Source of the DNA: an uncultured Pseudobdellovibrionaceae bacterium
GTDB lineage: Bacteria > Bdellovibrionota > FAC87 > UBA2466
DNA: 64,000 nt
Assembly (NCBI GenBank): GCA_964653655.1
Contig: CAZZHG010000005.1
Span: forward strand, 2,631-66,630
Reading direction: 5' to 3'
Part shown: piece after piece, positions 199-46,642 of the stretch
Layout: each line of letters opens with the position of its first letter
How positions within the stretch are numbered: position 1 is the stretch's first letter
Notes under the pieces: generated by a model
Told to the model about the DNA's origin: nothing
Database searches by the model: none
What the model saw: the letters and a program-made list of their open reading frames with translations, nothing else
Position numbers and translations under genes: made by a program

Positions 199-3100
199 AT
201 GCGCCTCGCCCGACTCTTTCTCTCTCTAATGATGTCAGTCGCGCCGCTTTCCGCGGACGAAGCGCACGATTCCGCGGCGACCGACGCCGGCTCGACCGAG
301 ATTACGACGGCCTATCCTTACGATCTCCAGCAGTGCCGCTTTCTGAAACGCGACAAGGGTTACTACTTTTTGGAGAAGGATTGGCACTTCCGCCAGACAG
401 GGCTCGATCTGTTTCGCAAGCATCCGCTCGTGAAGCGGGCGGATTACAGCAAGATTCAGCTGGGAATACTCGACACCCCGATTCGGGCGTCGGAAAACCC
501 GAAGGCCGGAAAACGGGTGAAGGCAGCTTCGAACGCCACCGCCGACGACCAGGACACCTTCCATGGAACTCACGTCGCGGGCATCGCCGCTTCGAAAACG
601 GTCGGCGTAAATCCGCGTTTGCCGCTAATTTCTCATCCGCTCGATTTTGAATGGACGATCTTCTCTCCGAGCATCGTAAACGCCTTGATCGCCGCCGGTA
701 AGGATCCCAAGACAAGAGTGGTTAACCTTTCCATCCACGCGCTCGAACACCCGCTCATCAAAGAGCAGGTGCTGGAGCTGACGAAGAAAGGCGTTTGGGT
801 CGTCTACGCCGCGGGAAACAACGGCGAAGTAAACGTCGGAGACAGCGCGCTTCTCAGAGAGCTGTCGCAGGTTCCCGAGCTCTTCTCCATCGGCGCGCTC
901 AACTACTTCGGAACCCCCGCATCATTCAGTAATCACGGCTCGAGCGTCGATTTCTACGCGCCGGGCGAGAGGATTCAGTCTCTTAACGCCGACTACGTTC
1001 CCGGAGAGAAAAAATCCAAAGCGAAGGCGGTGGCGGACGGAACGAGCATGGCGGCGCCTTACGCTTCGGCCGTACTTGCCACCATGCGGGCGATCGAGCC
1101 CTCTCTCACCGCGGAAGAAGCCTTGGAGCTCATCAAGGAGACGGCGATTCTCAGAGGCACGAAGGAAGTCGTGTCTCAGATTAACCCGTACCTCATCGTT
1201 TCCTATCTGGAGGCAATCCGTCTCGCCCGCCTGAAGCAGGAATGCAAGAAGCTGGTCTCCTGTTTTCCCGCGGCGAAGCGCGCCATTCAGGAGAAGGCGG
1301 AAGCTCTAGCCACGGCCCTCAAATCGCCGGAAAACAACAACTGCGACGAATGGGAGAAATTCCAAAATCAGCTTCGCCAAGGCTACTTCCTTACTCGCGG
1401 AAGAGATCCCCGTTTCAGCGGACCGCTCGTTCGCCTCTCCCAAAATGCCCCCCGGGGAAAAGCTGCGGAATCCGTTCTGTACACTTCGGGCGTCGCTCAG
1501 GAGCGGGCGCTCCCGGAGTTCATGGCCGATCACGGCGGCCTACTCGCAAAGGAAGAGGGAGAAGCCTCGAAAGCTTTCTTCGACGGCCGGCCGGACAAGC
1601 TGACCAAGGATGAGCTGGAGGTATCGTTCTCCAATCTCGACGCCATCTGGAAACGTTGTGAGAACTTCTTCTTCGTCCAAACCGACAATGGATTCTGCCA
1701 CGAGATGTTCCACGTCATGCCGAAGTCGTTGAAGCTCGCCTTGGCGAAAAGACTCGTCGATGCCAAGAAGCCGCTTTCGTCGATAAACCTGCTTCGAACC
1801 AACTTCCGGCTCTACGAGGACCCGGCGTCGCTACCCCTGCACAATGCGCTAGTGCCGCTCGCCATCGAGGGAATGGAGAAAAAGGTCCTCACTTCGACCG
1901 AAGCCGAGCACATGCTCGAAGAACTTCCGGAGCTTGCCGAGCAGGCCAGAAAGCAGGTGCTCCCCCTCCTGGAATCCTGCCTGAAAAGCCCCATCGCCGA
2001 GGAGCACAAGTACTGCCGCCGGTACATTGCCCGGGCCAAACTCTATCTGACCGCCGACTCCACGGCGGCGGACGACGAGAATGCCGCCAAGGAAATCGCC
2101 AAGGAATACGACATTGCCCTTCCCTACGCCGCTCTTCGAGTTCAAATCGAACGCGCCAGGGCCGGATTTTTCGACGAAGGAAAGATGGCGAACGTGTTGC
2201 TACGGCAACTCGCCGAGTGGAAGGAAATCGACGCGCCCTACACGAAGAAAGAGGAGAACCACGAGTTCGGAGCGCGCAAGGAGCTCTTCAACGACTGGCT
2301 GGAAGTGGCGAAGAGCCCCTTTTACGGCAAGCTAGTGGGCCAGATTCTCGCCAACCCGGCGAACCTGAAAGTCCTGGACCAGTTGCTTCACGGCAAAACG
2401 GCATTCCCCGATTCGGCGTGGGAAGGTTTCTTCCCGCTCGCCCAGCTGGAGCCGAAGGACCGCAAAGCCCTGCTGGAGGGGATCGCCGAACACTGGACCC
2501 TCAACGATTCAACGAGGGCGAAGCGCTACTTCACCCTGCTACAAGCGAACTCGGATCTACCGGAGGCGGCAAGCGTCCTCGAAGGTCTCAAGAAGAAGGA
2601 TCAGCCTACTCCCTTTTGGAAGGCGGCTCGGCGAAGTTACCTGCAACATGCCGCCGAAACGGCGACCGGTCCGACACCCGCTCTCGCGCAGCTTCTGGAT
2701 GAAACGCCGAAGAGCGAGCATTGGCTGACCCTGGCGTACCTCGACAAGGATTCGGCCGCCAAGGACCCCGAGTTCCTGAAACGTCTGGCGAAGATCTCTG
2801 AAGGAGCTCCCGCCGATTCCCTGCTCGCCACGGAGCTACTCGAGTGGATGAGCGTAAGCCTTCTGGGACAGCCCAAGGTCGAGACCAGCAACGCCATCGC
2901 GCCCATTCTGATTCCTAAGCTCGCCGAACTTTTTCGGGCGAGGGGACGATGGAACGAGAGCGGCGCACTCATTCCGGGCATCGGAACGAGTCTAAATCGG
3001 CTGTCCGAACGCCGGCCCCATCGATTCGCCCAATCGATTTTCCAGTTCGAAAAAATGCTCGCGGACGAAAAGTGGCTGACGGCGGACGACACACCAGAGG

Positions 3101-3552
3101 CGGATGACGAGCGGAAACTGGAGTCCATCTATCGGCGAAAAGATCTGTTTCTGGCGTTGAACACACTGACCAGCTCCGTCCAGGGCGACGCCTATCTGCA
3201 AAGCCACCCGAAAATGCTCGAATGGATGGTGAAGACGGCAACCGATCCCGATACGGACGAGAAGCTGGAGAATGCGGCACTCAATCCGACGCTGACATTC
3301 GCGTTGAAAGACAAAATCCCCGAAAAGTTGGGACCGGCGACCCGGACTCCCAACTGGCTCCTCGAAGTCACCTGGCGGCAACCCAAAGCTACTCCCAAGA
3401 TAGTTCAACTTTACAAGGAGAGCCGCCGCCCCGAACTTCTGCAATCTCTTCAACAGGCCCTCCTGCTGTTTCCCGAAAGACTTAGTTACGACGTGAAAAG
3501 GGAAATCGAAGGGCTTCCCGTTAGCGATCCGCCGATCGGAGGGGGCCCATGA
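199..3552 (+). CDS. Secreted subtilisin-like serine peptidase (S8 family) with a roughly 750-aa C-terminal extension of unknown function.
   Basis: Signal peptide MRLARLFLSLMMSVAPLSA. The S8 catalytic triad motifs are present in order: D in LGILDTPIR, H in HGTHVAGIAAS, S in GTSMAAPYASAVLA. The long helical C-terminal region matches no family I recognise. Confidence 0.8.
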   Translation: MRLARLFLSLMMSVAPLSADEAHDSAATDAGSTEITTAYPYDLQQCRFLKRDKGYYFLEKDWHFRQTGLDLFRKHPLVKRADYSKIQLGILDTPIRASENPKAGKRVKAASNATADDQDTFHGTHVAGIAASKTVGVNPRLPLISHPLDFEWTIFSPSIVNALIAAGKDPKTRVVNLSIHALEHPLIKEQVLELTKKGVWVVYAAGNNGEVNVGDSALLRELSQVPELFSIGALNYFGTPASFSNHGSSVDFYAPGERIQSLNADYVPGEKKSKAKAVADGTSMAAPYASAVLATMRAIEPSLTAEEALELIKETAILRGTKEVVSQINPYLIVSYLEAIRLARLKQECKKLVSCFPAAKRAIQEKAEALATALKSPENNNCDEWEKFQNQLRQGYFLTRGRDPRFSGPLVRLSQNAPRGKAAESVLYTSGVAQERALPEFMADHGGLLAKEEGEASKAFFDGRPDKLTKDELEVSFSNLDAIWKRCENFFFVQTDNGFCHEMFHVMPKSLKLALAKRLVDAKKPLSSINLLRTNFRLYEDPASLPLHNALVPLAIEGMEKKVLTSTEAEHMLEELPELAEQARKQVLPLLESCLKSPIAEEHKYCRRYIARAKLYLTADSTAADDENAAKEIAKEYDIALPYAALRVQIERARAGFFDEGKMANVLLRQLAEWKEIDAPYTKKEENHEFGARKELFNDWLEVAKSPFYGKLVGQILANPANLKVLDQLLHGKTAFPDSAWEGFFPLAQLEPKDRKALLEGIAEHWTLNDSTRAKRYFTLLQANSDLPEAASVLEGLKKKDQPTPFWKAARRSYLQHAAETATGPTPALAQLLDETPKSEHWLTLAYLDKDSAAKDPEFLKRLAKISEGAPADSLLATELLEWMSVSLLGQPKVETSNAIAPILIPKLAELFRARGRWNESGALIPGIGTSLNRLSERRPHRFAQSIFQFEKMLADEKWLTADDTPEADDERKLESIYRRKDLFLALNTLTSSVQGDAYLQSHPKMLEWMVKTATDPDTDEKLENAALNPTLTFALKDKIPEKLGPATRTPNWLLEVTWRQPKATPKIVQLYKESRRPELLQSLQQALLLFPERLSYDVKREIEGLPVSDPPIGGGP

Positions 3553-4849: not shown

Positions 4850-5452
4850 GTGCGATCCACGACTACACGCTTCATACTAGCGGCCCTCTTCGCGATAGCC
4901 TTCGCGCGCCCGGCCCAGGCCGCCTACCACTTCGGCTTTCAGGGATACGGCGGCTATTCGAGCTCGTCGGTTCCGAACGGCTTCGATAGCCCGACGCTCA
5001 TTCAAGCGGGTATCGGCGCGTCGCTCGGATTCGGATTCCGCCGGATCATGTTGGGAGTCGTTTCCGACTTCCGCTGGATCAGCCAGGTAAGCGCCGTCAC
5101 CAACGGCTCGGGAAACCGCCGAGGCGAAAGATTCAATCTGCTTTCGCCCTCGCTCTTCATCTTTTTCAACAAAGCCTACCTCTCCATCGAGTTTCAAAAG
5201 CTCGGCGAGTACAAGCTGTCGAACCTCACCGCCGAAGGAGCGCAGGTCATCTACCAGGATCCCATCGGCGCTAGAGTAACCTTCGCCTATACGATAGGCG
5301 GCCGGCTTTACCTCGGCGCGTACGTCGAATCCGTTCTCTTTCGTAAGCAGTTCGTCAGCGAGCTGAAAGAGCTGCACCCGCCGCTCAATGTTTGGCAAAC
5401 GGGCCTACTTCTCAGCTGGTCCCTGGAGAAAAGCGGCGGACGTAGAAGATGA
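4850..5452 (+). CDS. Secreted protein, probably an outer-membrane beta-barrel.
   Basis: Signal peptide MRSTTTRFILAALFAIAFARPAQA. The rest has alternating hydrophobic and polar beta-strand-like composition. It sits in an operon-like arrangement with the LysR gene and the BNR lipoprotein. Confidence 0.5.
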   Translation: MRSTTTRFILAALFAIAFARPAQAAYHFGFQGYGGYSSSSVPNGFDSPTLIQAGIGASLGFGFRRIMLGVVSDFRWISQVSAVTNGSGNRRGERFNLLSPSLFIFFNKAYLSIEFQKLGEYKLSNLTAEGAQVIYQDPIGARVTFAYTIGGRLYLGAYVESVLFRKQFVSELKELHPPLNVWQTGLLLSWSLEKSGGRRR

Positions 5453-6672: not shown

Positions 6673-8655
6673 TCAACGGGAACCGCGCGGATTGGAGCGG
6701 CGTTCGGCGAGCGCGGCCCGGCCCATGAAGGCGAACAGCGTCTGAATGAGCTGATTGTTACGGCGGCTGCCCAGGTAATTTCCAATCAGTCCGAAGGTGA
6801 TGAGCAGACAGGTAAGCGTCGAAAGCACCTTCGCCCCTGAGTAGTCGTCCATCCAGTGGGCGAACAGGTGCAGCAGCAAAGCCCCGAGCAGCGGAACATA
6901 GCTCGTCAACCGGTTATAGAGGCGAGTCGTCTGCGCGACCATGCCCATCTCGATACGAGCTTGCGCCTGGACGTCCGACTCCTGTTTCCACAGCATGGGA
7001 TACAAGACCCGCACGCAGATGAACTGGATGAAGAGGCTCGAGTACCCGAGCGCCACGAGCCAGGCGAACAGGAACGAAACCATGAAATGCGCGAACACCG
7101 GGACCGCAAGCGCGCCCGAGTTCAGGTGGATGAAGAGCGGAAAGAGAACGCTCGAGGGCACCCAGCCTATCGTCGTAACGAGAGCGACCACCGCCGGAAG
7201 GCGAAGCACTCTCTTTCTCAAGAGCGCCTGCTTTTCCAAGGAGAGATCCGTTCGCTTCACGTACGGCAGAATTCCCCTGAGCGCCCAAACCCAGATGCCG
7301 AGACAAACCGCGTAAACGACCGGGTTGTAGACCACCATGAGCGATTTGAAATACGCCTGTTGCACCGACGACAATCGGCTCACAATCTCCAGCTGGTTGT
7401 ATAGGATGTTCACGGCGCTCGCCATTATCTGGGGCACGAGGCCGTAGAGAACGAGTCCGGTAAGAGGACTGCGAAAGCACACCGCCGCGAACCAGTTTCT
7501 GGGCGGCAGCTCCTTGTCGATGCGATAGCGCTCCAAAGCTCCCTTCAGGGCTTTCGCGAACGCACCGGCATCGGCAAATCTCTTCTCGGGATCCTTCTCC
7601 AGCGCCTTATCCAAAACGGTTTTCCAGGGCGCCTCGTCCCGGCAGGGGGGATCCCCGGCGAGGGCCAACCATTCCTTCAATACAATGGCGAGCGAGTAGA
7701 CGTCGGCGCGGCGATCGAGCTTTTTAATCGCGGCCGCCCGGTCTTCGGCGACAAACATCGCTTCCTGCTCGGGCGCCATGTATGCCTTCGTTCCGCCGAT
7801 TTGCCCGGAAGTACCGGCCACGTCTTCGAGCGAAAGAGACACATTGAAATCGCTGAGGAGAAACCGGCCGTAGAGATTGAGCAGGATGTTGGCCGGTTTG
7901 ACGTCGAGGTGAAGCACTCCCTGCTGATGGGCATACTGCAAAGTGTCCGCGAGCCGCGCTCCCGTCCACATCACCATCTCGAAGTAGTCGAGCTTCGCGA
8001 GCATCTCCCGAAACTGGAGACTCGACGGATGAAAGGGCACTTGATCCAGAATCTGCCCGTCGAGAATCTCGAGCACCGCCGCACCCGAGAGCTTTGATTT
8101 CGGAAACGCCCGAAGCTTTGTGAGAATCGTTTCGAGCGTCGCCCCGGGGATGTACTGCATGCACATGAAACGCAGGTTCCGGGCGGAGTCCACCGTGTCC
8201 GAGAACACTTTCACGATGTGATCGTGTTCCAGGGGCGCCATGAGGCGCGCCTCGCGGCCGGAGTTGCGGGACACTTTCAGAGCGACTTCCCGGCCGAGAG
8301 AGATTTGCCGGGCGAGATAGACATGGGCGATGCCGCCCCGGCCGAGACTACGCACGATCTCGAAGTCGCCGACGACGTCGCCCGTGGAGAACTCGGGAAG
8401 GCCTCCCTCGTCGAGCGCGATTCGTTCCAGCAGTTTCGGTCCGACGGGATTGGCGAGAAAAGTCCCCGAGCGCTCGTGGGACTCCGCGAGAGATTTCACT
8501 TCCTCGCTGAGGCGCGCGTCTTCGTGGCCGAGGGCCTCGAAGTACTCCGCCCTCGCCTCTTTACTCAAGGCGAGCGCGCGCTCGAGGCATTCGGCGACCC
8601 GATCCTGAAAGTCGGTGGCGACTTCAGTCTTTAGTTTGTTCTGTGCTGAGCTCAC
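6673..8655 (-). CDS. Membrane-anchored Ser/Thr protein kinase (Hanks-type), with a roughly 90-aa N-terminal extension and a C-terminal polytopic membrane domain.
   Basis: Kinase motifs are present: GxGxxG-like RSLGRGGIAHVY, the catalytic loop HLDVKPANILL, and the activation segment GTKAYMAPE. The C-terminal roughly 250 aa contains multiple hydrophobic helices. The start codon lies 32 bp inside the 3' end of the ECF sigma gene. Confidence 0.85.
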   Translation of the reverse strand: MSSAQNKLKTEVATDFQDRVAECLERALALSKEARAEYFEALGHEDARLSEEVKSLAESHERSGTFLANPVGPKLLERIALDEGGLPEFSTGDVVGDFEIVRSLGRGGIAHVYLARQISLGREVALKVSRNSGREARLMAPLEHDHIVKVFSDTVDSARNLRFMCMQYIPGATLETILTKLRAFPKSKLSGAAVLEILDGQILDQVPFHPSSLQFREMLAKLDYFEMVMWTGARLADTLQYAHQQGVLHLDVKPANILLNLYGRFLLSDFNVSLSLEDVAGTSGQIGGTKAYMAPEQEAMFVAEDRAAAIKKLDRRADVYSLAIVLKEWLALAGDPPCRDEAPWKTVLDKALEKDPEKRFADAGAFAKALKGALERYRIDKELPPRNWFAAVCFRSPLTGLVLYGLVPQIMASAVNILYNQLEIVSRLSSVQQAYFKSLMVVYNPVVYAVCLGIWVWALRGILPYVKRTDLSLEKQALLRKRVLRLPAVVALVTTIGWVPSSVLFPLFIHLNSGALAVPVFAHFMVSFLFAWLVALGYSSLFIQFICVRVLYPMLWKQESDVQAQARIEMGMVAQTTRLYNRLTSYVPLLGALLLHLFAHWMDDYSGAKVLSTLTCLLITFGLIGNYLGSRRNNQLIQTLFAFMGRAALAERRSNPRGSR

Positions 8656-9199
8656 GGAAGAGCCACGCCCTCGCCATGGTCCAATCCCGCTTCACGGTGG
8701 CGGGGGACGTTTTGGTGACTTCTGCGATCTCCTCGATGCTCAAGCCCCCGAAAAAACGAAGCTCGACCACGCGGGCCCGGCGCTCGTCTTCCTTTTCGAG
8801 TTTCTCCAACGCCTCGTGCACGGCTTGAATGTCGAGCCCTTCTTCCTTCGAAAAATTGATGTTCTCCTCGAACGTCACGCGGAACGCCCCGCCTCCCCGC
8901 TTGTCGCGGTTCTTGGCCTTTGCGTGATCCATCAGCACCCAGCGCATCAGCTTCGCCGCGGCCGCGAAGAAGTGCGCACGGTTTTCCCAGCGCACCTCTT
9001 TCTGATCGACCATTTTGAGGAAGGCTTCGTTCACGAGCGCCGTGGGTTGCAGCGTGTGGCCGGGCCTTTCCTTGCGAAGGTAGGCGGCCGCAATCCGGCG
9101 AAGTTGATCGAGCACTTGAGGCAGTAGTGCCTCCAGCGCCTTCTCATCTCCTTGGCGGTAGTTTTCTATGAGCTCGGTGACCGACGCGGGCTTTCCCAT
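8624..9199 (-). CDS. ECF-type RNA polymerase sigma factor (sigma-70 regions 2 and 4).
   Basis: 191 aa. Region 2-like helix near the N-terminus. The C-terminal region-4 HTH reads IEEIAEVTKTSPATVKRDWTMARAWL. A GGAGGA RBS precedes the start. The 3' end overlaps the kinase gene. Confidence 0.8.
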   Translation of the reverse strand: MGKPASVTELIENYRQGDEKALEALLPQVLDQLRRIAAAYLRKERPGHTLQPTALVNEAFLKMVDQKEVRWENRAHFFAAAAKLMRWVLMDHAKAKNRDKRGGGAFRVTFEENINFSKEEGLDIQAVHEALEKLEKEDERRARVVELRFFGGLSIEEIAEVTKTSPATVKRDWTMARAWLFRELSTEQTKD

Positions 9200-13186: not shown

Positions 13187-13897
13187 ATGAAGTTTGGCTT
13201 CGCTGTATTGCTATTAGCTGCGTCGTGTTTTGCCTCGGACATTCCGAAGTCCGAGTTGAGCAACATGTACACCGGTACGTGGCGGCTACCGTCTCAGTTC
13301 ACGGATGCCAGGCTCGTGAAGTTGCTGAACCTCTTCAATGCGAAGGTCTACGGAAAAGGTTTTCGTTATATCGGTGAGGCGGGTGATTTCTTTCACGGAC
13401 ACATCCTGGTGGAAGGCATCGGCAAAGGTCCGGATAAGATCCTGCGGCCGAGAGCCATCCTGTATCACACGCAGGAGGAGGCCTATAAGGCCCACTGGGA
13501 GCCGACTCCTGCCCTGACGAAGTACGACTATCTCGACGTCACCACGCGCAACTGGATTCAGTGGCTAAGTGACGATCCCGCTCAGGACGGCGTCGATATT
13601 CGGAACGCTCGTGAGTATGTGGATGCGAAGAAGAAGGACCCATCGGTGTTCTTTGGGGACCATCCGGCTCCGGTGTTCAAGGAGCATTACACGATTCATG
13701 GGAGCAAGCTCGACGACTCGAAGCTTGGCTTCAATCTCGATGGTGAATCGGAGTTCGAGTTCTACGCCGACTGCAACACTTCTCCCGAGAACGAGTACGA
13801 CCACCGCCATGGGCCGTATGACGTAGTCGTGCCGGGCCAGGGTACTGTGTGCCTCAAGTTCTCGACGGCTTTGGCTGGATATTTCGAGCGCTTTTAA
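13187..13897 (+). CDS. Secreted hypothetical protein, probably co-transcribed with the upstream caspase-like gene.
   Basis: Signal peptide MKFGFAVLLLAASCFA. The gap to the upstream gene is 12 bp. Confidence 0.6.
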   Translation: MKFGFAVLLLAASCFASDIPKSELSNMYTGTWRLPSQFTDARLVKLLNLFNAKVYGKGFRYIGEAGDFFHGHILVEGIGKGPDKILRPRAILYHTQEEAYKAHWEPTPALTKYDYLDVTTRNWIQWLSDDPAQDGVDIRNAREYVDAKKKDPSVFFGDHPAPVFKEHYTIHGSKLDDSKLGFNLDGESEFEFYADCNTSPENEYDHRHGPYDVVVPGQGTVCLKFSTALAGYFERF

Positions 13898-13926: not shown

Positions 13927-13961
13927 AAAGCCGAAGGGGCAGTGCCCCTTCGGCTTTTTCC
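13927..13961. terminator. Bidirectional rho-independent terminator.
   Basis: AAAG-CCGAAGGGG-CAGTG-CCCCTTCGG-CTTTTTCC: a perfect 9-10 bp GC-rich stem with a 5-nt loop, flanked by an A-run and a T-run. It lies between convergent genes. Confidence 0.75.
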
Positions 13962-14652: not shown

Positions 14653-14807
14653 GATTTCCTTTCCCTGAACGCCCACCAGACCTCCCCCAAATAATATAAC
14701 TATTTCAGTTATGTATCGCCTGTTGCTTCCCAAGCGAAAACCCCTGACCCAAGTTGATCAAATTGCCGCATCGTGTTAGTCGTTTGGAACACGGTTTGGG
14801 GGGAGAC

Positions 14808-15080
14808 ATGGGAAAAAAATCTAAGAAGCTCGCGTATTGGCTTGTCGCCGTTTTAGTTACGCCTATGGCGAGGGCGTTTGATATTCCGACACAGTTCCAA
14901 ATCCGGCCAAAGAGAGGTCCTTTCAGCCAAGACAATTGCCATCATTGTCAGTGTGCGCGCCCTGATCGGTATCAAACGCAAAGCTTTGAGTTCCGAGCGG
15001 GAGCTCCGCTGATTCGATCAGGAAACTGGTCCGAGTCGAATGAATCTAAGAAGAAGGGCTTCATCAAAGAAGAGAAATAA
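14808..15080 (+). CDS. Secreted small Cys/His-containing peptide (candidate precursor or signalling peptide).
   Basis: A GGGGGGAGA RBS precedes an ATG at 14808. The Sec signal MGKKSKKLAYWLVAVLVTPMARA/FD has an AxA cleavage site. The roughly 65-aa mature part contains DNCHHCQC. It is the first gene of the low-G+C island. Confidence 0.5.
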   Translation: MGKKSKKLAYWLVAVLVTPMARAFDIPTQFQIRPKRGPFSQDNCHHCQCARPDRYQTQSFEFRAGAPLIRSGNWSESNESKKKGFIKEEK

Positions 15081-15085
15081 TCGGA

Positions 15086-16588
15086 ATGAAGATCCAAAGA
15101 ACGAGGAGATCGATTCTCTTTGCAACGATTGGATCTGTTGTAGTGGGACTCTCAGTGAGTAGTCTGCGAGAAAAACCAATTCAGGAAAAAAGACTGCGAG
15201 CGATCTATCCGATCGGCATGCTCAGGCGAGACGAACGTCTCTTCGACCCCACGAATCTATGGTCAGTTTATCACTACTACCTACAAGAAAATCTCGCCAG
15301 TTGCCTAGTGATCGATTCGACTAAAACCACCTCAGGTTATGAACCAAATCTAGCGACGTCTTGGGAACAAATGAGTCCGACCCAATGGCGCTTCCATATT
15401 GGAAAAGAATTGCGTTGGTCAGATGGTTCGGAGCTTTCTGGCAAACACCTAGAGGAATACTTTCTGGCCCTCTCCCATCGAAACTCGAGACATCTAGTGG
15501 CGCTTAAGTCGCTCGTGACCGCTCAATGGGACGAAGATGCGAGAACTCTAGAATTAGCTTTTTCAAGGCCGACATCACAAACTTTGTTGCACGAGCTTTC
15601 TCTTTCCGATGCCGCTATTCTTCACCCTACGAATGTCGATAGTTCCTGGTCCATCACGTCGGGACGATACTCCGTAAGTCATTTTGATGTCGAAAAGCAG
15701 ACTCTCGAACTGCGGGTAAACACCTATCATCCGAAGTACGAGACAAATTCACCAAACGCCGTGGAGCTATTCCAACCGAAGGAAACCAATTGGAGCCTCG
15801 CGAAAGAAAACGCCGACCTCTGGCTAGTGCCAACCCCTTCATTCTCAGAAGAATTTCGACGACGAGTTACAAGTGCCCCAGCTAGGATAGAAGGCCCCCC
15901 CACAGTAATCTACTATTTCGAGTTCAATCTTAACCACCGGTTGGGAAAATCTACAGAAGCCCGAGTCGAATTTGCTTCAGCGATTCACGAGTTCTTCGAC
16001 AAAGCTGTTCCAAAAATGCCGGAAGCGACTCCGGACCGCCAATTCGCTGCACCCGGCTACCCATCGAGACTTCAAAACTCTGCAGTACAAGAAATCGAAC
16101 CGAAAGCACCTATTTCCATTCTGAGTGGAGAGACGATATCGATATCGATGTACTACTTCGGCGAGGAATACACGTGGCTTTCCACTGAATTTGCCTCCTT
16201 CCTAAGAAATAGAGGAGTAAACGCGACACTCTCCTACAATCGCTATAAGAAAAATGAGCCGCAAGATTGGTTTGCACGTGCTTCAATGTTTAGTGGAAAC
16301 CAGAGAGATTCTGTAGGGTCGTGGAGTTTCCTTCTCTCAAATCCGGACATCGATGTCGGGAGAAAATACCCTGATCTAACCGCCGATCTTAAGAAGGCCT
16401 CGGAAACGTCAGTCGCTTCAGAGAGAGAAAGCATTCTTCAGAGAATTCACTCCCGATTCATTGAACGTGCTCTAGTTGTGCCCTTCCTTCTTGAACGACG
16501 TTACGCAATACACTCTGAAAGGATCTCCCTAGAGCATTGGAACGAATTTGATCTGCGTTCACGTTTCTATGACATTACATGGAAATGA
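15086..16588 (+). CDS. Periplasmic solute-binding protein, family 5 (peptide/nickel-type SBP), Tat-exported.
   Basis: N-terminal TRRSILF Tat-like motif followed by a hydrophobic segment. The segment LATSWEQMSPTQWRFHIGKELRWSDGSELSGKHLEEYF matches the conserved SBP_bac_5 core (L.ESWE....T..F.LRKGV.F.DG..F.A.DV). Length 500 aa. Confidence 0.65.
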   Translation: MKIQRTRRSILFATIGSVVVGLSVSSLREKPIQEKRLRAIYPIGMLRRDERLFDPTNLWSVYHYYLQENLASCLVIDSTKTTSGYEPNLATSWEQMSPTQWRFHIGKELRWSDGSELSGKHLEEYFLALSHRNSRHLVALKSLVTAQWDEDARTLELAFSRPTSQTLLHELSLSDAAILHPTNVDSSWSITSGRYSVSHFDVEKQTLELRVNTYHPKYETNSPNAVELFQPKETNWSLAKENADLWLVPTPSFSEEFRRRVTSAPARIEGPPTVIYYFEFNLNHRLGKSTEARVEFASAIHEFFDKAVPKMPEATPDRQFAAPGYPSRLQNSAVQEIEPKAPISILSGETISISMYYFGEEYTWLSTEFASFLRNRGVNATLSYNRYKKNEPQDWFARASMFSGNQRDSVGSWSFLLSNPDIDVGRKYPDLTADLKKASETSVASERESILQRIHSRFIERALVVPFLLERRYAIHSERISLEHWNEFDLRSRFYDITWK

Positions 16589-16598
16589 AAGTGCCGCC

Positions 16599-17429
16599 AT
16601 GAAGACTTTCACAACCAGGTACGTTGCAACCTATGGCCACCTTTCCATCGGCAGCAAATGTACTCTGCAGCTAGACACCGGGGGTGCGGCAATCGGTTAT
16701 GGAGTTGGAACGACTCTCAGAACTGCGTCCAGAAGAGCCTTCTCTGAAGCTTGGGAAAGACACGTCATGAGTAACATGGCGTGTTTTGATCAGTCGATTA
16801 CCTCATCGAACGGATTCGCTGCGCATTGGTCGAAGGAAACGGCCCTAAGAAACAGTCTAGAAGAGTTGGTTGAACGCCGGATGGTGCTGCGAGCGTGGTC
16901 AACGGGTAGAGGATGGAACAGATCTGGTACGCTCGATTTGTGTGCCCGAGCGATTGTTTGGAAGGCCGAAGCCCAACACTGGAGAATTAACTGGTATCAG
17001 ATTCAAGTACCCGCCCAAAATCACCGCGTTCTCGTCCTGTTGGCCAGACACAAGACTCTTGGCGCATACTTCGATTCCGCCTCGAACGCACCCGGCTCCG
17101 CGCGAAAGCTCGCGCAAGGATTAGATCTATATCTGAACCGTATCGAGCGTTCCCCTTCTTTAGCGGAGCTTCCCGACTTTGCCACACCTGCCTCTCACCT
17201 GGCCTTCTATCGCAATCCCAGCAATCTTCAGGCCTTTGATTTCCTCGAAAACACATCTTCATGTGAAACACTCCCCGATGAGAGAACGAAATCACCCCCA
17301 CAGCAGAGCATCGTAAGCAACTCTCCTGGAATGCCGTATGTCGCCCGTTCGTGGAATAATGACTGGCCCCAACTGAGTTGGGGCGCGAAGAGCGGAGGAG
17401 CGAACTCGTGGCCTCACCCCCTGGCATAG
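16599..17429 (+). CDS. YcaO-superfamily protein, unusually short (about 277 aa).
   Basis: GYGVGTTLRTASRRAFSEAWERH matches the YcaO ATP-binding signature G(K)GxTxxxAxxSAxxEAxER. The start at MKTF lies immediately after the SBP stop. The alternative listed start at 16548 overlaps the SBP gene. Confidence 0.6.
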   Translation: MKTFTTRYVATYGHLSIGSKCTLQLDTGGAAIGYGVGTTLRTASRRAFSEAWERHVMSNMACFDQSITSSNGFAAHWSKETALRNSLEELVERRMVLRAWSTGRGWNRSGTLDLCARAIVWKAEAQHWRINWYQIQVPAQNHRVLVLLARHKTLGAYFDSASNAPGSARKLAQGLDLYLNRIERSPSLAELPDFATPASHLAFYRNPSNLQAFDFLENTSSCETLPDERTKSPPQQSIVSNSPGMPYVARSWNNDWPQLSWGAKSGGANSWPHPLA

Positions 17430-18655
17430 GTCTCTACAAATCCCGGCAGGTCTGGGCGTGGACCACATCTACGCTACTAGTTTTGTCGCTGATAGGGGTA
17501 CTACTCTGGACACAACACCTAAGACATTCATTCGGACGAATCCTTGAATCAGAGACGAAGCAGGCCATAGAAGCGACGCGGGAAGCAGTTCAGCACGGCA
17601 ACTTTCGGGCGTTTGTCGAATTGCTGGGTACAAGATTTTCCGACCCATACGTGAAAGTAGGATCCGCTTTCGGAAATCTCGAGATGGGCAGTCCAAGTGT
17701 TCTGCCAATCTGTAGTATTCAATCGCTAGAGAGTACATCGATCAAGGTTTGCGGGCCTTCCCAAATACCTTGGAGTCAGGCTTCTATCATTCTATCTATA
17801 TTCCTCCTGCTTTCCTTCGGTGCCCGCTTAGTTCTGACGACTATCGAAGAAAAAGCCATCGCGTCAATGACCTCGACTTTTGCACACCTTGAGCTTCCAA
17901 ATCCCCTCCTAAGCGGGATGACCCCGTTGTTAGCCGGCGTGAGTGACTTGAGACGGTCGGTAGTAGACCTTCAGGAACGTGATCGACGGCTATCGAAAAA
18001 GGCTCAGCTCACAGAAACAGCCCAAAAGGTCGCCCACGATATTCGCTCCCCTCTGTCGGCGCTCAAGGTTTTGGCCTCGTCACCAGAGGAACTCAACAAG
18101 GAAGAAGGAAGGAATCTCTTCCGGATGGCTACCGCCAGACTTGTCGGAATTGTAGACGACTTTCGAGAAAAATCTGGAGACGACCTGGAGATCGTTGACT
18201 TGGTTCCTCTTCTTTCAAGTGGGGTTCAAGAAAAGCTCCTGGAACGAAGTAACCGGCGAGATGTCGCTCTAACGTTGAATATCGAAGCAAAGGAACTCAA
18301 CTGTCGCGTTGAATCCAAGCTCTTTCAACGAGTGTTGTCTAACCTACTCAACAACTCGTTCGAAGCGATACATAGCCGAGGTACCATTCAGGTCACCGCA
18401 GCTGTTCTAAAAGATTCAAAGATTAGGATCGAAATAGTTGATGATGGCGTAGGCATACCAGCCACTATTTTAAACATATTGCGCAAGGAACAGATCTCTT
18501 ACGGAAAAGTGAAGGGCTCAGGATTGGGGTTCAATTCCGCTAGAGAATGGATTCTGTGCTGGGGCGGAAGCATTTCGATCTCTTCCACAGAAAACGTCGG
18601 AACTAGCGTTAGAATCGAACTCCCTAGTAGCGACCTGCAAAGAGCGGGATTCTGA
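17378..18655 (+). CDS. Sensor histidine kinase with two N-terminal TM helices and a roughly 110-aa periplasmic loop.
   Basis: HisKA H-box AHDIRSPLSALKVL. HATPase_c N-box LSNLLNNSFEAI and G-boxes DDGVGIP and GSGLGF. The TM helices are LLVLSLIGVLLW and IILSIFLLLSFGARLVL. The start codon is uncertain and the listed start overlaps the YcaO gene's 3' end. Confidence 0.8.
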   Translation: MGREERRSELVASPPGIGLYKSRQVWAWTTSTLLVLSLIGVLLWTQHLRHSFGRILESETKQAIEATREAVQHGNFRAFVELLGTRFSDPYVKVGSAFGNLEMGSPSVLPICSIQSLESTSIKVCGPSQIPWSQASIILSIFLLLSFGARLVLTTIEEKAIASMTSTFAHLELPNPLLSGMTPLLAGVSDLRRSVVDLQERDRRLSKKAQLTETAQKVAHDIRSPLSALKVLASSPEELNKEEGRNLFRMATARLVGIVDDFREKSGDDLEIVDLVPLLSSGVQEKLLERSNRRDVALTLNIEAKELNCRVESKLFQRVLSNLLNNSFEAIHSRGTIQVTAAVLKDSKIRIEIVDDGVGIPATILNILRKEQISYGKVKGSGLGFNSAREWILCWGGSISISSTENVGTSVRIELPSSDLQRAGF

Positions 18656-18696
18656 CCGGTCCCACCAAATCGTCTATCGAGGTAGATGTTCAGTTC

Positions 18697-18743
18697 AGAA
18701 AAAAAGAGAATGGGCGGCCCCCGTCACCGGAGAGCCGCCCATC
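18697..18743 (-). terminator. Rho-independent terminator for the minus-strand gene 18769..19581.
   Basis: On the minus strand, the hairpin GGGCGGC-N15-GCCGCCC at 18711-18742 is followed by TCTCTTTTTTT. Confidence 0.55.
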
Positions 18744-18768: not shown

Positions 18769-19581
18769 TTAAAACGGGTTGCCCTGGCAAGTGCCCGAAG
18801 AGAGCAGCTTGCGATCGCCATTGCGGGTGATCACATAGACCGCGAACTGAGCGCTACGGCCCACCGCGGACTTCGAGCTCGTGAAGTTCTGCTGGCGCTG
18901 GCGAGGATCGAGAGTGCCACGCACCACATCCGACTGGTTCGTCTGCGGATTGTTGAAATGCACTTCGTAACCCGTCACGCCCGAACCGTTCACCGAGCAT
19001 TCGACATGGCTCTGCTTCTGGAAGAAGTTGCCGCCGAACTTGCCGTTACACTGGCCCGTGATCGCTCCGCCACCATGGTGGTTCTGAGCATCGTTCTGGA
19101 TCGCCCGTTCAAAAGCTCTCCAAGCCTGCTCAACCTCACGAATGGCGAACTGCACGCCGAAACCACCGCGGTTCAAGTTGTCGATAGCGCGGCTGAGATT
19201 CGCGTACTCGTTGTTCTCGAGGCTGCGAAGCGTACGGCCGAAACGATCGTGACCATCCCGATCCTGCAGCTCACGGATGACCTGACGACGAAGAGCGCGC
19301 TCGAGCGTGCTCGCCGCATCGGCAACCTGGTCGAGCTGAGCGACGGCGTTGTTCATGCCCTTCTCGCTGAAGTCATCGGCCTGATCGAAGGCCTGGTCGT
19401 CGAGCTTCTGAATCGCATCGATGAGATTCGAGGCGGCCTGAAAAAGAACGCCCGTCTGATTGGGACGGTGGAAGTGGCTACCGGGACCCCGGCGCCAACC
19501 GTTGTTGTTGTTGTGATTCGGACCATCCGCGACGGCAATCGCCGTCGCAGAAATGAGAAACAGAGCAATGAACTTGGACAT
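18769..19581 (-). CDS. Secreted hypothetical protein (Asn/Gln/Gly-rich).
   Basis: Start at the internal Met with a GGAG RBS. MSKFIALFLISATAIAVADG is a signal peptide. The ORF's upstream extension was rejected. Confidence 0.6.
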   Translation of the reverse strand: MSKFIALFLISATAIAVADGPNHNNNNGWRRGPGSHFHRPNQTGVLFQAASNLIDAIQKLDDQAFDQADDFSEKGMNNAVAQLDQVADAASTLERALRRQVIRELQDRDGHDRFGRTLRSLENNEYANLSRAIDNLNRGGFGVQFAIREVEQAWRAFERAIQNDAQNHHGGGAITGQCNGKFGGNFFQKQSHVECSVNGSGVTGYEVHFNNPQTNQSDVVRGTLDPRQRQQNFTSSKSAVGRSAQFAVYVITRNGDRKLLSSGTCQGNPF

Positions 19582-19756
19582 TTTTGCACTCCTTGAAAGT
19601 GACCCAGGGACACACTGCCGCGCTTCTCCCACCCGGAAACCCAATGCGTCAAACAAGGGAGACGGTAAGTGAAGTCAGAAACTTCAAGGGGCAAAAAAGC
19701 ACCGGGCGGAGTGGTCGCCCCACCCCGCCCGGCTAGTCGTTCATCACAGTTGAGGA

Positions 19757-24683: not shown

Positions 24684-25919
24684 TTACTTCACGCCGTAGC
24701 GCACGCTGCACGTGCCCGAACCACCGGGGCCGGTTACGGTGCCCGTCGCCGTGAACACCCCGGACTCCACCGGGGTAATCGTCTTCGTGCCGCCCAGCGC
24801 AGGCATCGACTGTCCGATGAGTAGCGCGCTGCTCACCTGTCCCGACGTTTTCATCGTGAGCACCAACGACTCACCGAGACGAATGAAGCTCGGATTGGCG
24901 GCGAGGGCGCACAGCGGCGACTCCACCACCGGGCCGGTGATGTTGACGTAGATCAGCGTCGCGTCGGCGCCGAGCGGGCTTTTCGCGGTCAAAGAAACCC
25001 GGAAGCTTCCCGTCACGGTCTTCGGCGGCGCGATCGTAAGCGTCATGCCGTTGATCTCCATCCACTCGGGAGCGCTCGGATCGAGGTAGAACTTGAGGCC
25101 CGCGATGTTGGGCATGTCGAGCAGCATCGGAAGCTTCTGCTCGTAAACTTCGCCCGACTCCACGCTGTAAGAGTAGAGGCTCTTCTTGAAGTGCGGCTCT
25201 CCCGGCGTGACGCTCTCGCAGGTCGAAGTGACGCCGCAGATGTCCACGTTCTGCGCCTTCGCCGTATCCTTCAGAAACGACTGCACCGACGGCAAAGCGA
25301 GATGGAGGCTGTAGTTGGTGTCCTGGATGTTGCCCTTGCTGTTGATGCCGACCACGCGGAACTTGCCGGCTTCCTTCGCCATCGTCGGCCCGCCGGAGTC
25401 TCCGAAGCACAGAGCGCCGCCGTTCACACGCTTCGAGACGAAATCGCTCTGGGAGAAGGACAGCACGTCCGACTCACCCATGCGAAGCACGCCGTCGTTG
25501 CCGCCGCCGCCGCCCGGAGTCGTGCAGCCGAAGCCGAGCAGAAAGACTCTGTCGCCGACATTCACGGAGCCGCCGATGGAGGCCGGCACCAGTCCTGAAA
25601 TCGCCTGGGGCGTGATGATGAGCCCGACATCCTTGTCCTGGGACGGGTAGTCGGGATGACGGAACCCTTTGCCGACGTAAGTGCGGCCGTCGACCGAGAA
25701 CTCGGCCGAGCCGCCATCCTTCACGCAGTGGGCGGCGAGGATCAAGGCGTTCGGACCGACCACGGTCGCCGTGCAGCTCGCGCCGTCGGCCCTCACCTGA
25801 ATCACTTCGCCGAACATGCCCTTCGGCACTTCGACGCCGTTGATGATGCGCTCGCCGCTCGCTTGAGCGGTCGACGCGAGTATCGTCGATAGAATCACGG
25901 CTGTTTTGAAAAGCTTCAT
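24684..25919 (-). CDS. Secreted trypsin-like serine peptidase (S1 family) with a C-terminal extension.
   Basis: Start at the internal Met with an AGGAGA RBS. Signal peptide MKLFKTAVILSTILASTAQA. Motifs IINGVEV, His in LILAAHC and Ser in CFGDSGGP are present. The C-terminal roughly 150 aa is an extra domain. Confidence 0.8.
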   Translation of the reverse strand: MKLFKTAVILSTILASTAQASGERIINGVEVPKGMFGEVIQVRADGASCTATVVGPNALILAAHCVKDGGSAEFSVDGRTYVGKGFRHPDYPSQDKDVGLIITPQAISGLVPASIGGSVNVGDRVFLLGFGCTTPGGGGGNDGVLRMGESDVLSFSQSDFVSKRVNGGALCFGDSGGPTMAKEAGKFRVVGINSKGNIQDTNYSLHLALPSVQSFLKDTAKAQNVDICGVTSTCESVTPGEPHFKKSLYSYSVESGEVYEQKLPMLLDMPNIAGLKFYLDPSAPEWMEINGMTLTIAPPKTVTGSFRVSLTAKSPLGADATLIYVNITGPVVESPLCALAANPSFIRLGESLVLTMKTSGQVSSALLIGQSMPALGGTKTITPVESGVFTATGTVTGPGGSGTCSVRYGVK

Positions 25920-26111
25920 TTGGTTTCTCCTTCGTTCGAGTTGGTTTTCAATCTCTTCATGATCAAATCTGACACGAAAAATTCTTCCGCCGGAAAATGG
26001 GTCCAAGTTGCCCGGAACAAAAGTTAAGGACTCGACTTCTGGTGACCGAAACCGCGGCGGGTTCATCGCCCTCGCCGCCGCCGTGGCATACTGATGCTTT
26101 AAAGGAAGAAG

Positions 26112-27101
26112 ATGATCGCAATCGCGCTGAAAGTAATGCTGCTCACCGCAATGGCTCAGGCGCCCGCGGTTCCGCCCTCCGCCGACGACCCTTACCGTCC
26201 GTCCGGTGAGGACGCCCTGATGAAAACCGGCCGCGACAAGGGAGAGCCCATCGACTTGGACTGGCGCCGCACGAGTGTGCAGCTCGACGCCGCCCAGGCG
26301 AAACAACATTTCGCGGATTTCGACGCCTCGAAGGAGCTCGCCCTCGCCAACGTGAAGCACTTCGATGAGTGGTACGTGGCCCGCCTCCCTTTAGAGGGGC
26401 TCGAGGGCGTGAAGATGACCCGCTACCGCATTCTTAAGCAGCTTCCGGTAAGCCACGGCGGCCTGAGGTTCACCATGAGGAAGGGATTCAAGGTCCGCCT
26501 CGTTCCTCAAGTGAACGGATCGAAGAGCCCGCGGCTTGAGTTCGATTCGCTGGGTTTCGGCATTTACGCCGTCGGAAAGAAGGGCCGCAAGTTCGGCATG
26601 GAAAATAGCGCCAACAAAGACCTGGTGAGCACTTACATGTTCTATACGCCGGCGGAGCTGATGGAGCGCTTCAGGCAGGACACCAAGAACAACGACATGA
26701 AGGAGATTCCCCTCAATCAGATGGAGGCGGCCGACACCCAGGCCCTGCTTCAGCACCTGGCCAAGAGCGCGACCGAGACGAAATACGAAGAGGTCTATGG
26801 GATGTTCCTCAATAACTGCGTGCACCGGCTGCTCGCCCTTATAAAGGAGAGCCGCCGTCCCTCTGGCAAGCCCGCGCGCAATGCCCTTATAAGGAAGACC
26901 GTGAAGACCGCCATCAATCCGGTGAGCGGGGTGCTCGATAGCGCCCGCGATGCTTCGGGCGATTTGCTTCCGACGGGGCTTACGAACGGGTTCTCACCCA
27001 TAATCACGCACGAGCTTTACCGGATCGGGGTGACCTCCTACTTCGCCGCCTGGTCCGACGTGCTGAAGGATCCAGAGCTCAAGTCCCTCAAGCAGAAGTG
27101 A
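26112..27101 (+). CDS. Secreted hypothetical protein.
   Basis: Signal peptide MIAIALKVMLLTAMAQA. Total length 329 aa with no family I recognise. Confidence 0.55.
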   Translation: MIAIALKVMLLTAMAQAPAVPPSADDPYRPSGEDALMKTGRDKGEPIDLDWRRTSVQLDAAQAKQHFADFDASKELALANVKHFDEWYVARLPLEGLEGVKMTRYRILKQLPVSHGGLRFTMRKGFKVRLVPQVNGSKSPRLEFDSLGFGIYAVGKKGRKFGMENSANKDLVSTYMFYTPAELMERFRQDTKNNDMKEIPLNQMEAADTQALLQHLAKSATETKYEEVYGMFLNNCVHRLLALIKESRRPSGKPARNALIRKTVKTAINPVSGVLDSARDASGDLLPTGLTNGFSPIITHELYRIGVTSYFAAWSDVLKDPELKSLKQK

Positions 27102-43692: not shown

Positions 43693-43722
43693 CCAAAAGG
43701 TGCGGCCTCACTTCTGGCTTTC
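43693..43722. repeat. Left inverted repeat of the Y1-transposase element.
   Basis: CCAAAAGGTGCGGCCTCACTTCTGGCTTTC is the exact reverse complement of 44433-44462. Confidence 0.8.
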
Positions 43723-44379: not shown

Positions 44380-44432
44380 GGGGAGAACAGATACACTCTC
44401 TGTAAGTAAACGCTAGAAGGTATGGGGGGCGT

Positions 44433-44462
44433 GAAAGCCAGAAGTGAGGCCGCACCTTTTGG
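44433..44462. repeat. Right inverted repeat of the Y1-transposase element.
   Basis: GAAAGCCAGAAGTGAGGCCGCACCTTTTGG is the exact reverse complement of 43693-43722. Confidence 0.8.
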
Positions 44463-44539
44463 CTGCGCCGCAAAAAGTGAAGCGTTCCGCATAATCTCTC
44501 TTTCAAGACCCGCCTCGCTCATTCCGAAAAATATAGAGT

Positions 44540-45391: not shown

Positions 45392-45490
45392 TCTCAGTGG
45401 CCGAGCCCGTTGAACCCAGGAAATCTTGACCTCCCATGCGTTGATCCGACCTATCTATAGGAGTAGAACTAGGGCGAAGGTGTAACGTTC

Positions 45491-46522: not shown

Positions 46523-46642
46523 GGTTGTGCTCCTTTGTTGAGCTAGTGGTTTGCAATTTTGATTCCGACCTCGCCGATCTCAGGCGCGAATCTTTCGCCT
46601 GGCATTCCGATTGCACAACTCAACGCAGTACAAGGAGGCCAC

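Follow-up and report, generated by a model that had tools for sequence, protein, structure and literature searches.

The window analysed here, a stretch of 64,000 nucleotides (nt) from an uncultured Pseudobdellovibrionaceae bacterium (contig CAZZHG010000005.1, positions 2,631 to 66,630), contains an AT-rich island at 14700-18660. Four co-oriented genes are encoded on its + strand: a small precursor peptide, a solute-binding protein (SBP), a minimal YcaO enzyme and a sensor histidine kinase (Table 1). The genes form one operon, as only 5 nt separate the peptide and SBP genes and 10 nt the SBP and YcaO genes, and the YcaO and kinase genes overlap by 22 nt. These distances bear out the tight packing and overlap reported in a first-pass annotation of this DNA. 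The cassette was found in 28 further non-redundant loci and on one contig without DNA, and it is a conserved unit, not a chance neighbourhood. With a probability of about one half, we read it as a self-contained module for the production and sensing of a peptide signal. Peptide modification together with sensing appears, from the sequences, better supported than the other options between which the first-pass annotation had hedged.

Starting from the YcaO protein, 27 loci were collected by exact contig look-ups and pattern scans in species-representative genomes and JGI metagenomes, the patterns being built from a 24-sequence alignment. An independent search started from the SBP profile added six proteins, and all six lie in the same cassette arrangement. 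The SBP, YcaO and kinase genes are adjacent and co-oriented in every locus with sufficient contig reach, except L025. Three gene orders occur: peptide-SBP-YcaO-kinase in most loci, kinase-SBP-YcaO in L005 and YcaO-peptide-SBP-kinase in L028. In the latter, which is only 23% identical, the YcaO gene has moved, yet the peptide gene is still found beside the SBP gene. Co-occurrence of the orthologues in other genomes had been left as a check; SBP, YcaO and kinase are found together in 28 non-redundant loci, and the possibility that the genes never meet elsewhere clearly falls away.

All nine genome matches are metagenome-assembled genomes (MAGs) labelled Bdellovibrionales, Bdellovibrionaceae or Bdellovibrio, and one additional locus comes from an Oligoflexales MAG (L031). 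When every open reading frame (ORF) of at least 70 aa in 24 loci was compared all-versus-all, only the SBP, YcaO and kinase families were common between loci, and the flanks of these 24 loci yielded no further shared protein family. An apparent fourth conserved family of 78-115-aa ORFs was discarded, as it consists of antisense ORFs inside the YcaO gene.

Whole cassettes can be duplicated. One MAG holds two paralogues of 49-58% identity, with the peptide cores LNCTGGGGTSC (L006) and HNCIDGGHC (L007), and L011 and L012 form a second paralogous pair with differing cores. Such paralogues with different cores represent a diversification typical of signal-receptor pairs. In L007 (449-1934; also L017), the second cassette of MAG RBG_16_40_8, the SBP gene is split in two frames, with tblastn segments at 584-1096 and 1095-1928, and the locus has runs of N; the split is either a frameshift/pseudogene or an assembly error. 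L025 (5342-7705; also L026 and L027) represents a high-G+C variant (58-65%), with an epimerase gene in convergent orientation after it. WPHPLA is missing from the end of its YcaO, the kinase is absent and the peptide has N-R-C in place of N-C. This variant is probably a copy in decay or a divergent one.

The peptide ORF of the window spans 14754-15080 and its likely start is the ATG at 14808, behind a GGGGGGAG run. The precursor reads MGKKSKKLAYWLVAVLVTPMARA followed by FDIPTQFQIRPKRGPFSQDNCHHCQCARP... and then a 41-aa hydrophilic tail. The first-pass annotation had described a small peptide with a signal peptide and a DNCHHCQC motif; the motif is present, and a Sec-type N-terminus is predicted, with a hydrophobic core of mean Kyte-Doolittle value 1.93 over 12 residues and four K/R before it. 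The closest relative of the window cassette is L035, whose 90-aa peptide matches the window peptide with a tblastn E of 4e-18; the SBPs of these two loci are 49% identical. Both peptides share RPK(K/R)xPFxxDNCxHCQCARP, and their long C-terminal tails are not conserved.

In 19 loci (one partly read), the SBP gene is directly preceded by a small ORF, and Asn-Cys is present in 19/19. Basic residues followed by a hydrophobic stretch occur at every available precursor N-terminus, often with an AxA-type site. Among the complete ORFs scored, this N-terminus was counted in 16/16 and Asn-Cys in 15/16; the dipeptide lies at residue 41-50 in 13 of the 15 complete precursors that contain it. The cores around it are diverse, with Gly-rich surroundings being common. 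NCxxCxC is found in the window (DNCHHCQC), L035 (DNCEHCQC), L021 and L037 (both NCNECSC) and L028 (NCGFCDC). The cores of L001, L006, L007, L008, L015, L024 and L036 follow NCx(4-7)C, and that of L022 is more closely spaced (NCERC). A single Cys is present in L011 (ANCLPGGQ) and L029 (SNCLATD), both lacking a His next to Asn-Cys, and in L038 (ANCHNTFGM, with His beside it), and further forms are NCGC (L012), CLKNC (L031) and NCGDNCC (L034). In L005, a 36-aa ORF containing ANC was not accepted as a peptide gene, since it lacks a signal peptide. Sec signals are rare among precursors of ribosomally made peptides that carry modifications added after translation (RiPPs) but proven in bufferins, in which the conversion of Cys to heterocycles precedes Sec export (PMC11626156).

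The YcaO gene starts at ATG 16599, matching the NCBI-derived protein P0001; an alternative TTG at 16548 would give 293 aa. Pfam YcaO (PF02624) matches with 31.3 bits against a cut-off of 25.7, the aligned part being only residues 84-192 of the 293-aa ORF, and the same domain is precomputed for all six first homologues. The protein has no transmembrane segment (hydropathy) and no extra domain (Pfam, AlphaFold2 model). Its AlphaFold2 (AF2) model has a predicted local distance difference test (pLDDT) value of 73.8 and a predicted template modelling score (pTM) of 0.75. In a Foldseek search of this model against the PDB, the top 14 matches are all YcaOs. The best is McbD (E 8e-7, TMq 0.67); next come the thioamide-forming YcaOs of the methanogens M. 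jannaschii and M. kandleri, and E. coli YcaO. The sequence profile reaches only E 0.2 in the PDB, to TruD and LynD and through the SNGxAAG...ELxER block alone.

An exhaustive hidden Markov model (HMM) search placed 116 representatives (50%-identity clusters) in this family at E<1e-30 and 195 at E<1e-10; a word-seeded protein search, insensitive at ~30% identity, gave 6-8 matches against these 116. Full-length members are nearly all 280-330 aa long, with a median of 305 aa among the 153 best representatives. Invariant or nearly invariant in 101 members are E50, E53, R54, N71, G72, A74, A75, E89, L90, E92, R93, D159, P197, H200, Y204 and P272-H273-P274, which include the SNGxAAG block and both ExxER blocks of YcaO enzymes. 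The latter two, E50-A-W-E53-R54 and E89-L-x-E92-R93, show at least 90% conservation or full invariance and lie only 15-25 residues apart. From work on E. coli YcaO, we take the ExxER residues to be nucleotide/Mg ligands.

The exact C-terminal end is P-[HL]-P-x-[AGS] in 118 of the 153 best representatives, WPHPLA being the commonest. The family tail W-P-H-P-[LI]-[AG] thus corresponds to PxPx(A/G), in which the last Pro of PxPxP is replaced. Among YcaOs, a C-terminal PxPxP is associated with azoline formation, and a catalytic role has been suggested for the C-terminal carboxylate (PMC12338566). No TfuA partner was found, the conserved neighbours being limited to SBP, kinase and peptide. The window YcaO and its relatives constitute a distinct minimal clade, previously uncharacterised.

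This tail is encoded within the YcaO/kinase overlap. In the window and in most loci, the codons for W-P-H-P-L-A, when read from one base further on, yield the kinase start M-A-(T/S)-(S/P), and the kinase N-terminus MA(T/S)S occurs only in loci with the overlap. In L005 and L028, which have other gene orders, the YcaO tail is retained and this kinase start is not. It is thus the enzyme, and not the kinase start, that constrains the tail, which is kept where no kinase gene overlaps it. As a consequence of the dual coding, the apparent conservation of the kinase N-terminus is a by-product of the YcaO C-terminal motif.

The SBP matches SBP_bac_5 (PF00496) with 45.9 bits against a cut-off of 32.4. 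The family profile finds AapF (7e-16) in the PDB, then OppA, MppA, NikA, AgaA and PrgZ. Full-length Foldseek matches of the AF2 model (pLDDT 77) have E-values of 1e-20 to 1e-25; MppA, OppA and AapF have the best E-values, and NikA comes next but with the highest TM-score, up to 0.70. On this predicted model, the fold search does not distinguish peptide binders (OppA-like) from metallophore binders (NikA-like). Proteins of the OppA family bind peptide pheromones or signals, as in PDB entries 8are (OppA with PhrE peptide), 4faj (PrgZ) and 7kz9 (AapF). Hydropathy gives one N-terminal hydrophobic segment. Export by the twin-arginine (Tat) route had been proposed in the first pass; TRRSILF is present in the window copy, but the twin arginine is not conserved in the homologues, whose N-termini mostly lack RR and resemble Sec signals or signal anchors. 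A scan for Walker-A plus LSGGQ over 242 kb of loci and over 5-29 kb of the window revealed no linked ABC transporter. The sole ABC-type ATPase match in the 242 kb is in L022 and is unlinked, and we therefore regard the SBP as an orphan.

The kinase start, previously read as TTG 17378, is placed at GTG 17408. The Shine-Dalgarno sequence GGAGGA (17394-17399) lies eight bases before it, and the homologues have ATG there. In the 415-aa form, hydropathy places transmembrane segments at residues 15-33 and 120-138, with the ~86-aa loop between them. HATPase_c matches with 62.1 bits, and the H-box AHDIRSPLSAL is conserved in all homologues. HisKA reaches 18 bits in the window copy, below the cut-off, and 32.1 bits in L023, above it. 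A short periplasmic domain with the conserved motif (F/Y)RxF(V/x)E is common to the kinases. Just before the second transmembrane segment, all cassette kinases have an invariant Cys pair, C-x8-17-C-[RG]-[PK]-x3-P (window residues ~100-117). It could form a disulfide, a metal site or a thiol-exchange site with the Cys peptide.

The first-pass annotation had called a family-5 SBP, a YcaO-superfamily protein and a two-transmembrane histidine kinase with a periplasmic loop, and had left these calls to be checked with HMMs. SBP_bac_5, YcaO and HATPase_c all score above the curated cut-offs. The predicted models add full-length fold matches for the SBP and a YcaO fold for the enzyme, and H-box and hydropathy agree for the kinase. 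No NCBIfam equivalog is matched by the cassette proteins, and no anti-phage defence model of PADLOC matches any of the four.

A putative link to transcription is found outside the window. The earlier remark that no response regulator is adjacent stands for the window, but some homologues have an NtrC-type regulator beside them or a putative fused receiver. NtrC-type sigma54 regulators adjoin the cassette in the same orientation in three independent loci, upstream in L029 and L034 and downstream in L031. In L021 and L022, which are paralogous cassettes from one metagenome, the kinase C-terminus gives a weak receiver-domain match (22.9 and 29.6 bits, under the Pfam cut-off of 30.2). The same two loci have sigma54-type -24/-12 promoters, TGGCCCAAAGCTTGCA in L021 (10/11 positions, 5008-5040) and TGGCCTAAGGATTGCA in L022 (9/11, 5080-5110). 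These sites lie 56 and 54 nt before the peptide starts (5079 and 5147), at a background of 0.08 sites/kb; the other loci checked, including the window, have no such match. In L029 (3611-4191), two small genes stand between the NtrC-type regulator and the precursor. The product of one, 128 aa long, matches Response_reg weakly (18.3 bits, cut-off 30.2) and is possibly a single-domain receiver; the other product, of 65 aa, contains THDLTN, which is H-box-like, and has no Pfam match. Together they hint at a phosphorelay.

From these elements, the following course of events can be proposed. Before export, the cytoplasmic YcaO would activate the backbone amide between Asn43 and Cys44 of the precursor at the expense of ATP. 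Attack by the Cys thiol would follow, most likely yielding an Asn-derived thiazoline; since the cassette has no dehydrogenase partner, an azoline and not an azole would be the product. The peptide would be exported by Sec and cleaved by signal peptidase after A-R-A. In the periplasm, perhaps trimmed to the region of the NC motif, it would be bound by the membrane-tethered orphan SBP. The loaded SBP would dock on the short Cys-pair loop of the kinase and alter its autophosphorylation. The phosphoryl group would pass to an NtrC-type sigma54 activator whose gene lies elsewhere in this genome and which would control target genes and, at least in part of the lineages, also the operon (autoinduction).

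Several points weigh against this proposal. We infer the modification, its site, the export, the SBP binding and the SBP-kinase coupling from gene anatomy, conservation and precedent. For leader recognition, YcaOs that form azolines usually depend on an E1-like or Ocin-ThiF partner, the bearer of the RiPP recognition element (RRE), and no such partner was found in the cassette or conserved in the flanks of the 24 loci. The enzyme is ~100 aa shorter than any solved YcaO and its sequence match to the PDB YcaOs is only E 0.2, so that its chemistry could differ. The invariant Asn before the Cys is not a known requirement for azolines and hints at a chemistry that involves Asn, perhaps through its side chain; YcaO-made six-membered rings are cited in PMC12338566. 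With 25-65 residues, a mature peptide would have difficulty in leaving the periplasm, and cell-cell quorum sensing would therefore need further processing or an outer-membrane route. The Cys/His content of the window core would fit metal binding equally well, and L005 has no recognisable peptide gene. On the output side, no response regulator is adjacent in the window, no GAFTGA-type activator is encoded in its 64 kb and no sigma54-like promoter lies upstream of its peptide gene.

That same core, rich in soft-metal ligands, could belong to a periplasmic metallophore or metal-stress module. Thiazoline and Cys/His would then bind Cu, Zn or Ni, the NikA-like SBP would bind the complex and the kinase would report the metal load. 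Methanobactin operons likewise include an SBP5 protein, MbnE. The best NCBIfam match of the SBP, far under the cut-off, is nickel-binding Opp5A/NikA, and NikA is among its best fold matches, in a search that does not tell NikA-like from OppA-like proteins. Bufferins are Sec-exported RiPPs whose Cys-derived heterocycles chelate periplasmic copper (PMC11626156). The invariant Cys pair of the kinase loop could contribute to a metal site. We nevertheless consider this explanation unlikely and favour signalling over metal handling. Only Asn-Cys is invariant, while the putative ligand residues are variable or absent: ligand number and spacing vary widely and three cores have a single Cys, which is unexpected for a conserved metal site. 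In addition, whole cassettes are duplicated within genomes with divergent cores, which fits signal specificity better, and the output linked to the cassette is an activator of transcription. Genes for metal efflux, chaperones or uptake are not conserved nearby, and sensing is preferred to uptake because the only ABC-type ATPase in 242 kb is unlinked.

The YcaO might also have another target, namely the SBP, the kinase before its membrane insertion or an unlinked protein, the small ORF then being an unmodified ligand or a disulfide-looped peptide. Protein-modifying YcaOs are known, for example in the thioglycine formation of McrA, and the methanogen enzymes are among the best fold matches. The missing RRE partner would be explained as well, and the two Cys of most cores could simply form a disulfide after export. 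This is nonetheless quite improbable, since the peptide, SBP and YcaO genes stay together across three gene orders and the near-constant distance of Asn-Cys from the N-terminus resembles a ruler for recognition by an enzyme. At the C-terminus of the YcaO, PHPxA is a tail of the kind linked to azoline formation, and the kinase's Cys pair, being periplasmic, is beyond an ATP-dependent enzyme once the kinase is inserted. Most improbable is an exported antimicrobial or predation effector, an azoline toxin against prey or competitors, with SBP and kinase serving producer self-sensing or immunity regulation. It would suit the hosts, which are Bdellovibrionales and Oligoflexales MAGs, the richness of the window in secreted proteases and the microcin B17 cyclodehydratase McbD as closest structural relative. 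Conserved immunity genes, a dedicated exporter and a leader protease are nevertheless missing from the cassette; the peptides carry a general Sec signal and their cores are very short, with one to three Cys. A dedicated SBP-kinase receptor, present in every copy, is not seen in known bacteriocin clusters.

The proposed module that makes and senses a peptide signal can be compared with several described systems. It shares with McbD, TruD and LynD, the enzymes of thiazole/oxazole-modified microcins (TOMMs) and linear azol(in)e-containing peptides (LAPs), the YcaO fold, both ExxER motifs and, in an alignment to TruD and LynD, the SNGxAAG...ELxER block. A Pro-containing extreme C-terminus (PHPLA here, canonically PxPxP) and a Cys-containing ribosomal peptide encoded beside the enzyme are further common traits. 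In contrast, the enzymes described here have ~280-330 aa, compared to 360-580+ residues in the matched solved chains, and their ExxER blocks are only 15-25 residues apart. Neither an E1-like/Ocin-ThiF partner nor a flavin mononucleotide (FMN) dehydrogenase is encoded, and a Sec signal peptide takes the place of the classical leader. The targets are one or two Cys with an invariant Asn before them, and a receptor (SBP and kinase) is found instead of exporter or immunity genes.

The stand-alone YcaOs of bottromycin biosynthesis work without an E1-like partner, BotC forming a thiazoline and BotCD an amidine. Bottromycin contains a single thiazoline at an Asp-Cys junction, with a follower peptide behind it. 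These stand-alone enzymes are also mentioned in PMC12338566. The follower peptide can be likened to the 41-aa tail after the Cys-rich core of the window precursor. No sequence relationship exists beyond the superfamily, however, and follower hydrolase, P450 and methyltransferases are lacking here. The hosts (Bdellovibrionota here, Streptomyces there) and the export routes differ as well.

Bufferins resemble the cassette in that heterocycles are formed from Cys residues in the cytoplasm, ahead of Sec export (as proposed here), the product acts in the periplasm and the regulation is tied to an envelope signalling system (PMC11626156). [quoted passage not shown] Bufferin precursors are DUF2282 or 6/12-Cys proteins without an Asn-Cys rule, and the bufferin cluster contains no SBP or histidine kinase. 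Methanobactin operons encode the precursor MbnA, MbnBC, the periplasmic binding protein MbnE and MbnT. Here again, a RiPP with a Cys-derived heterocycle (proposed in our case) is combined with a family-5 SBP, which in methanobactin clusters recognises the mature product. The methanobactin chemistry is that of MbnBC (MNIO) and not of a YcaO, its regulation relies on a TonB receptor and sigma/anti-sigma factors instead of a histidine kinase, and its precursor has no Sec signal. Since no MNIO enzyme is present, the cassette is neither a bufferin nor a methanobactin cluster.

On the receptor side, pheromone sensing by the OppA family (Bacillus Phr/OppA, 8are; Enterococcus PrgZ, 4faj) also starts from a Sec-exported pre-peptide with the active part at or near its C-terminus. 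Recognition by a family-5 SBP is common to OppA, PrgZ and AapF (7kz9), and the SBP profile of the cassette matches all three. There, however, the SBP supplies an ABC importer and the receptors (Rap, PrgX, PipR) reside in the cytoplasm, whereas the cassette has no importer and a membrane kinase in the same operon. The OppA and PrgZ pheromones are, moreover, not YcaO-modified. Periplasmic binding proteins that, with or without an additional transport role, relay ligand occupancy to a transmembrane signalling protein from a nearby gene are known in LuxP-LuxQ, TorT-TorS and ChvE-VirA and, with a family-5 SBP, in DppA-Tap. The SBPs of the first three belong to other SBP clusters and respond to small-metabolite ligands, not to a peptide of their own operon, and none of the four systems is known to include a modifying enzyme.

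The first-pass annotation had not recognised the combination as a described system, and none turned up in full-text literature searches. We would class the cassette as the union of a YcaO-type RiPP cluster with a two-component sensor that depends on a binding protein, with a new precursor family. If the proposal is true, it adds a new, very small, partner-independent YcaO clade with a strict Asn-Cys substrate rule, a clean system in which to ask for the minimal catalytic unit of amide-backbone activation. We know of no other YcaO-dependent RiPP family whose precursor has a Sec signal peptide. The peptide would thus be the first of its kind, the trait having so far been tied to the MNIO-modified bufferins. 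With a RiPP and its own receptor (orphan SBP and kinase) in one operon, the role is directly testable by a transcriptional read-out.

The cassette could also reveal peptide signalling in Bdellovibrio-like predators, for which no account of cell-cell communication was found in the literature searched. More tentatively, and with some doubt on our part, it might represent a new class of cell-cell or self-signalling in Gram-negative predators (Bdellovibrionota). Such a class would comprise an Asn-Cys peptide, a minimal YcaO without partner, possibly an undescribed heterocycle involving Asn, Sec export and an orphan OppA-like protein with kinase and NtrC/sigma54 output, and the duplicated cassettes would act as orthogonal channels. 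The cassette is self-contained and modular within 4 kb and, if the peptide-SBP-kinase pairs are orthogonal, could offer sensor parts for synthetic biology.

Table 1. Features of the cassette and of the island edges in the 64-kb window.
Feature	Position	Strand	Basis or remark
AT-rich upstream region, left island edge, presumed promoter	14653..14807	+	upstream ORF stops at 14652
Precursor peptide, 90 aa	14808..15080	+	homology to L035 90-aa peptide; position upstream of SBP gene as in 18 other loci
Predicted Sec-type signal peptide	14808..14876	+	n-region KKSKK, hydrophobic core, A-R-A cleavage motif; read from sequence
Core motif D-N-C-H-H-C-Q-C	14931..14954	+	Asn43-Cys44 is the family-invariant dipeptide
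Orphan family-5 SBP, 500 aa, N-terminal hydrophobic anchor/signal with TRRSILF	15086..16588	+	Pfam, profile against PDB, AF2, Foldseek
Minimal YcaO, 276 aa, ends NSWPHPLA	16599..17429	+	Pfam YcaO, AF2 model, Foldseek
Dual-coding YcaO/kinase overlap, 22 nt	17408..17429	+	YcaO S-W-P-H-P-L-A-stop; kinase M-A-S-P-P-G-I in another frame
Sensor histidine kinase, 415 aa	17408..18655	+	first transmembrane segment, ~86-aa periplasmic loop with Cys pair, second transmembrane segment, H-box, HATPase_c
G+C-rich hairpin between kinase stop and convergent gene 18769-19656; right island edge	18709..18743		terminator-like site scan

The island itself has a distinct composition. Its G+C content is 49.4%, compared to 59.1% in the rest of the window. 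This is the lowest value among all 3961-bp segments of the 64 kb (mean 58.5%, standard deviation 2.6%), ~3.5 standard deviations below the mean. The G+C content at third codon positions (GC3) is 0.46-0.55 in the four island genes and 0.66-0.78 in neighbouring genes. Both measures agree with the AT-richer stretch noticed at ~14.7-18.7 kb in the first pass; the flanks, given there as over 60% G+C, measure ~59%. The deficit of 9.6 points is the largest among the cassette loci compared. In most other loci, the cassette is 0-7 points AT-richer than its flanks, in hosts that range from 29% to 61% G+C, and L035 has a G+C content of 51%, similar to the island. Beyond ~18.7 kb, the G+C content climbs back to 55-60%.

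Upstream of the window peptide gene, no convincing sigma70-like site was found on the + strand, and homology to L035 (tblastn) starts within the peptide gene and not 5' of it. The hairpin at the right edge is listed as terminator-like for the - strand. An Rfam search of the region gave no riboswitch or other element. The horizontal acquisition suggested in the first pass is in line with the compositional shift, but no integrase was found among the neighbouring window ORFs (Pfam scan), no tRNA around the island and no meaningful direct or inverted repeats flanking it. Acquisition of the cassette from a lower-G+C relative is plausible. In L031 (5313-7267), the cassette is directly preceded by an IS200/IS605-type tnpA (Y1_Tnp) and a TnpB/Cas12f-like gene, the only mobility-related neighbours among all loci.

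Among the window neighbours, a PF07638-type ECF sigma factor gene adjoins that of a 660-aa Ser/Thr protein kinase (6673-9199, - strand). A 1117-aa subtilase (199-3552), a trypsin-like protease (24684-26360) and a MacB-type permease are also encoded. Several neighbouring proteins have no Pfam match, and some of the neighbours have signal-peptide-like N-termini. A perfect 15-bp inverted repeat, AAAGCCGAAGGGGCA / TGCCCCTTCGGCTTT, is located at 13927-13957, just past the gene 13187-13897, and is probably an intrinsic terminator; an Rfam miRNA match at this repeat is sub-threshold and was dismissed as meaningless. The G+C content dips again at 44001-46000 (54.7%), and ORFs with GC3 near 0.46-0.52 are found at 43708-44379, 46525-46839 and 63165-63935. 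These spots may be further foreign segments or non-coding ORF calls.

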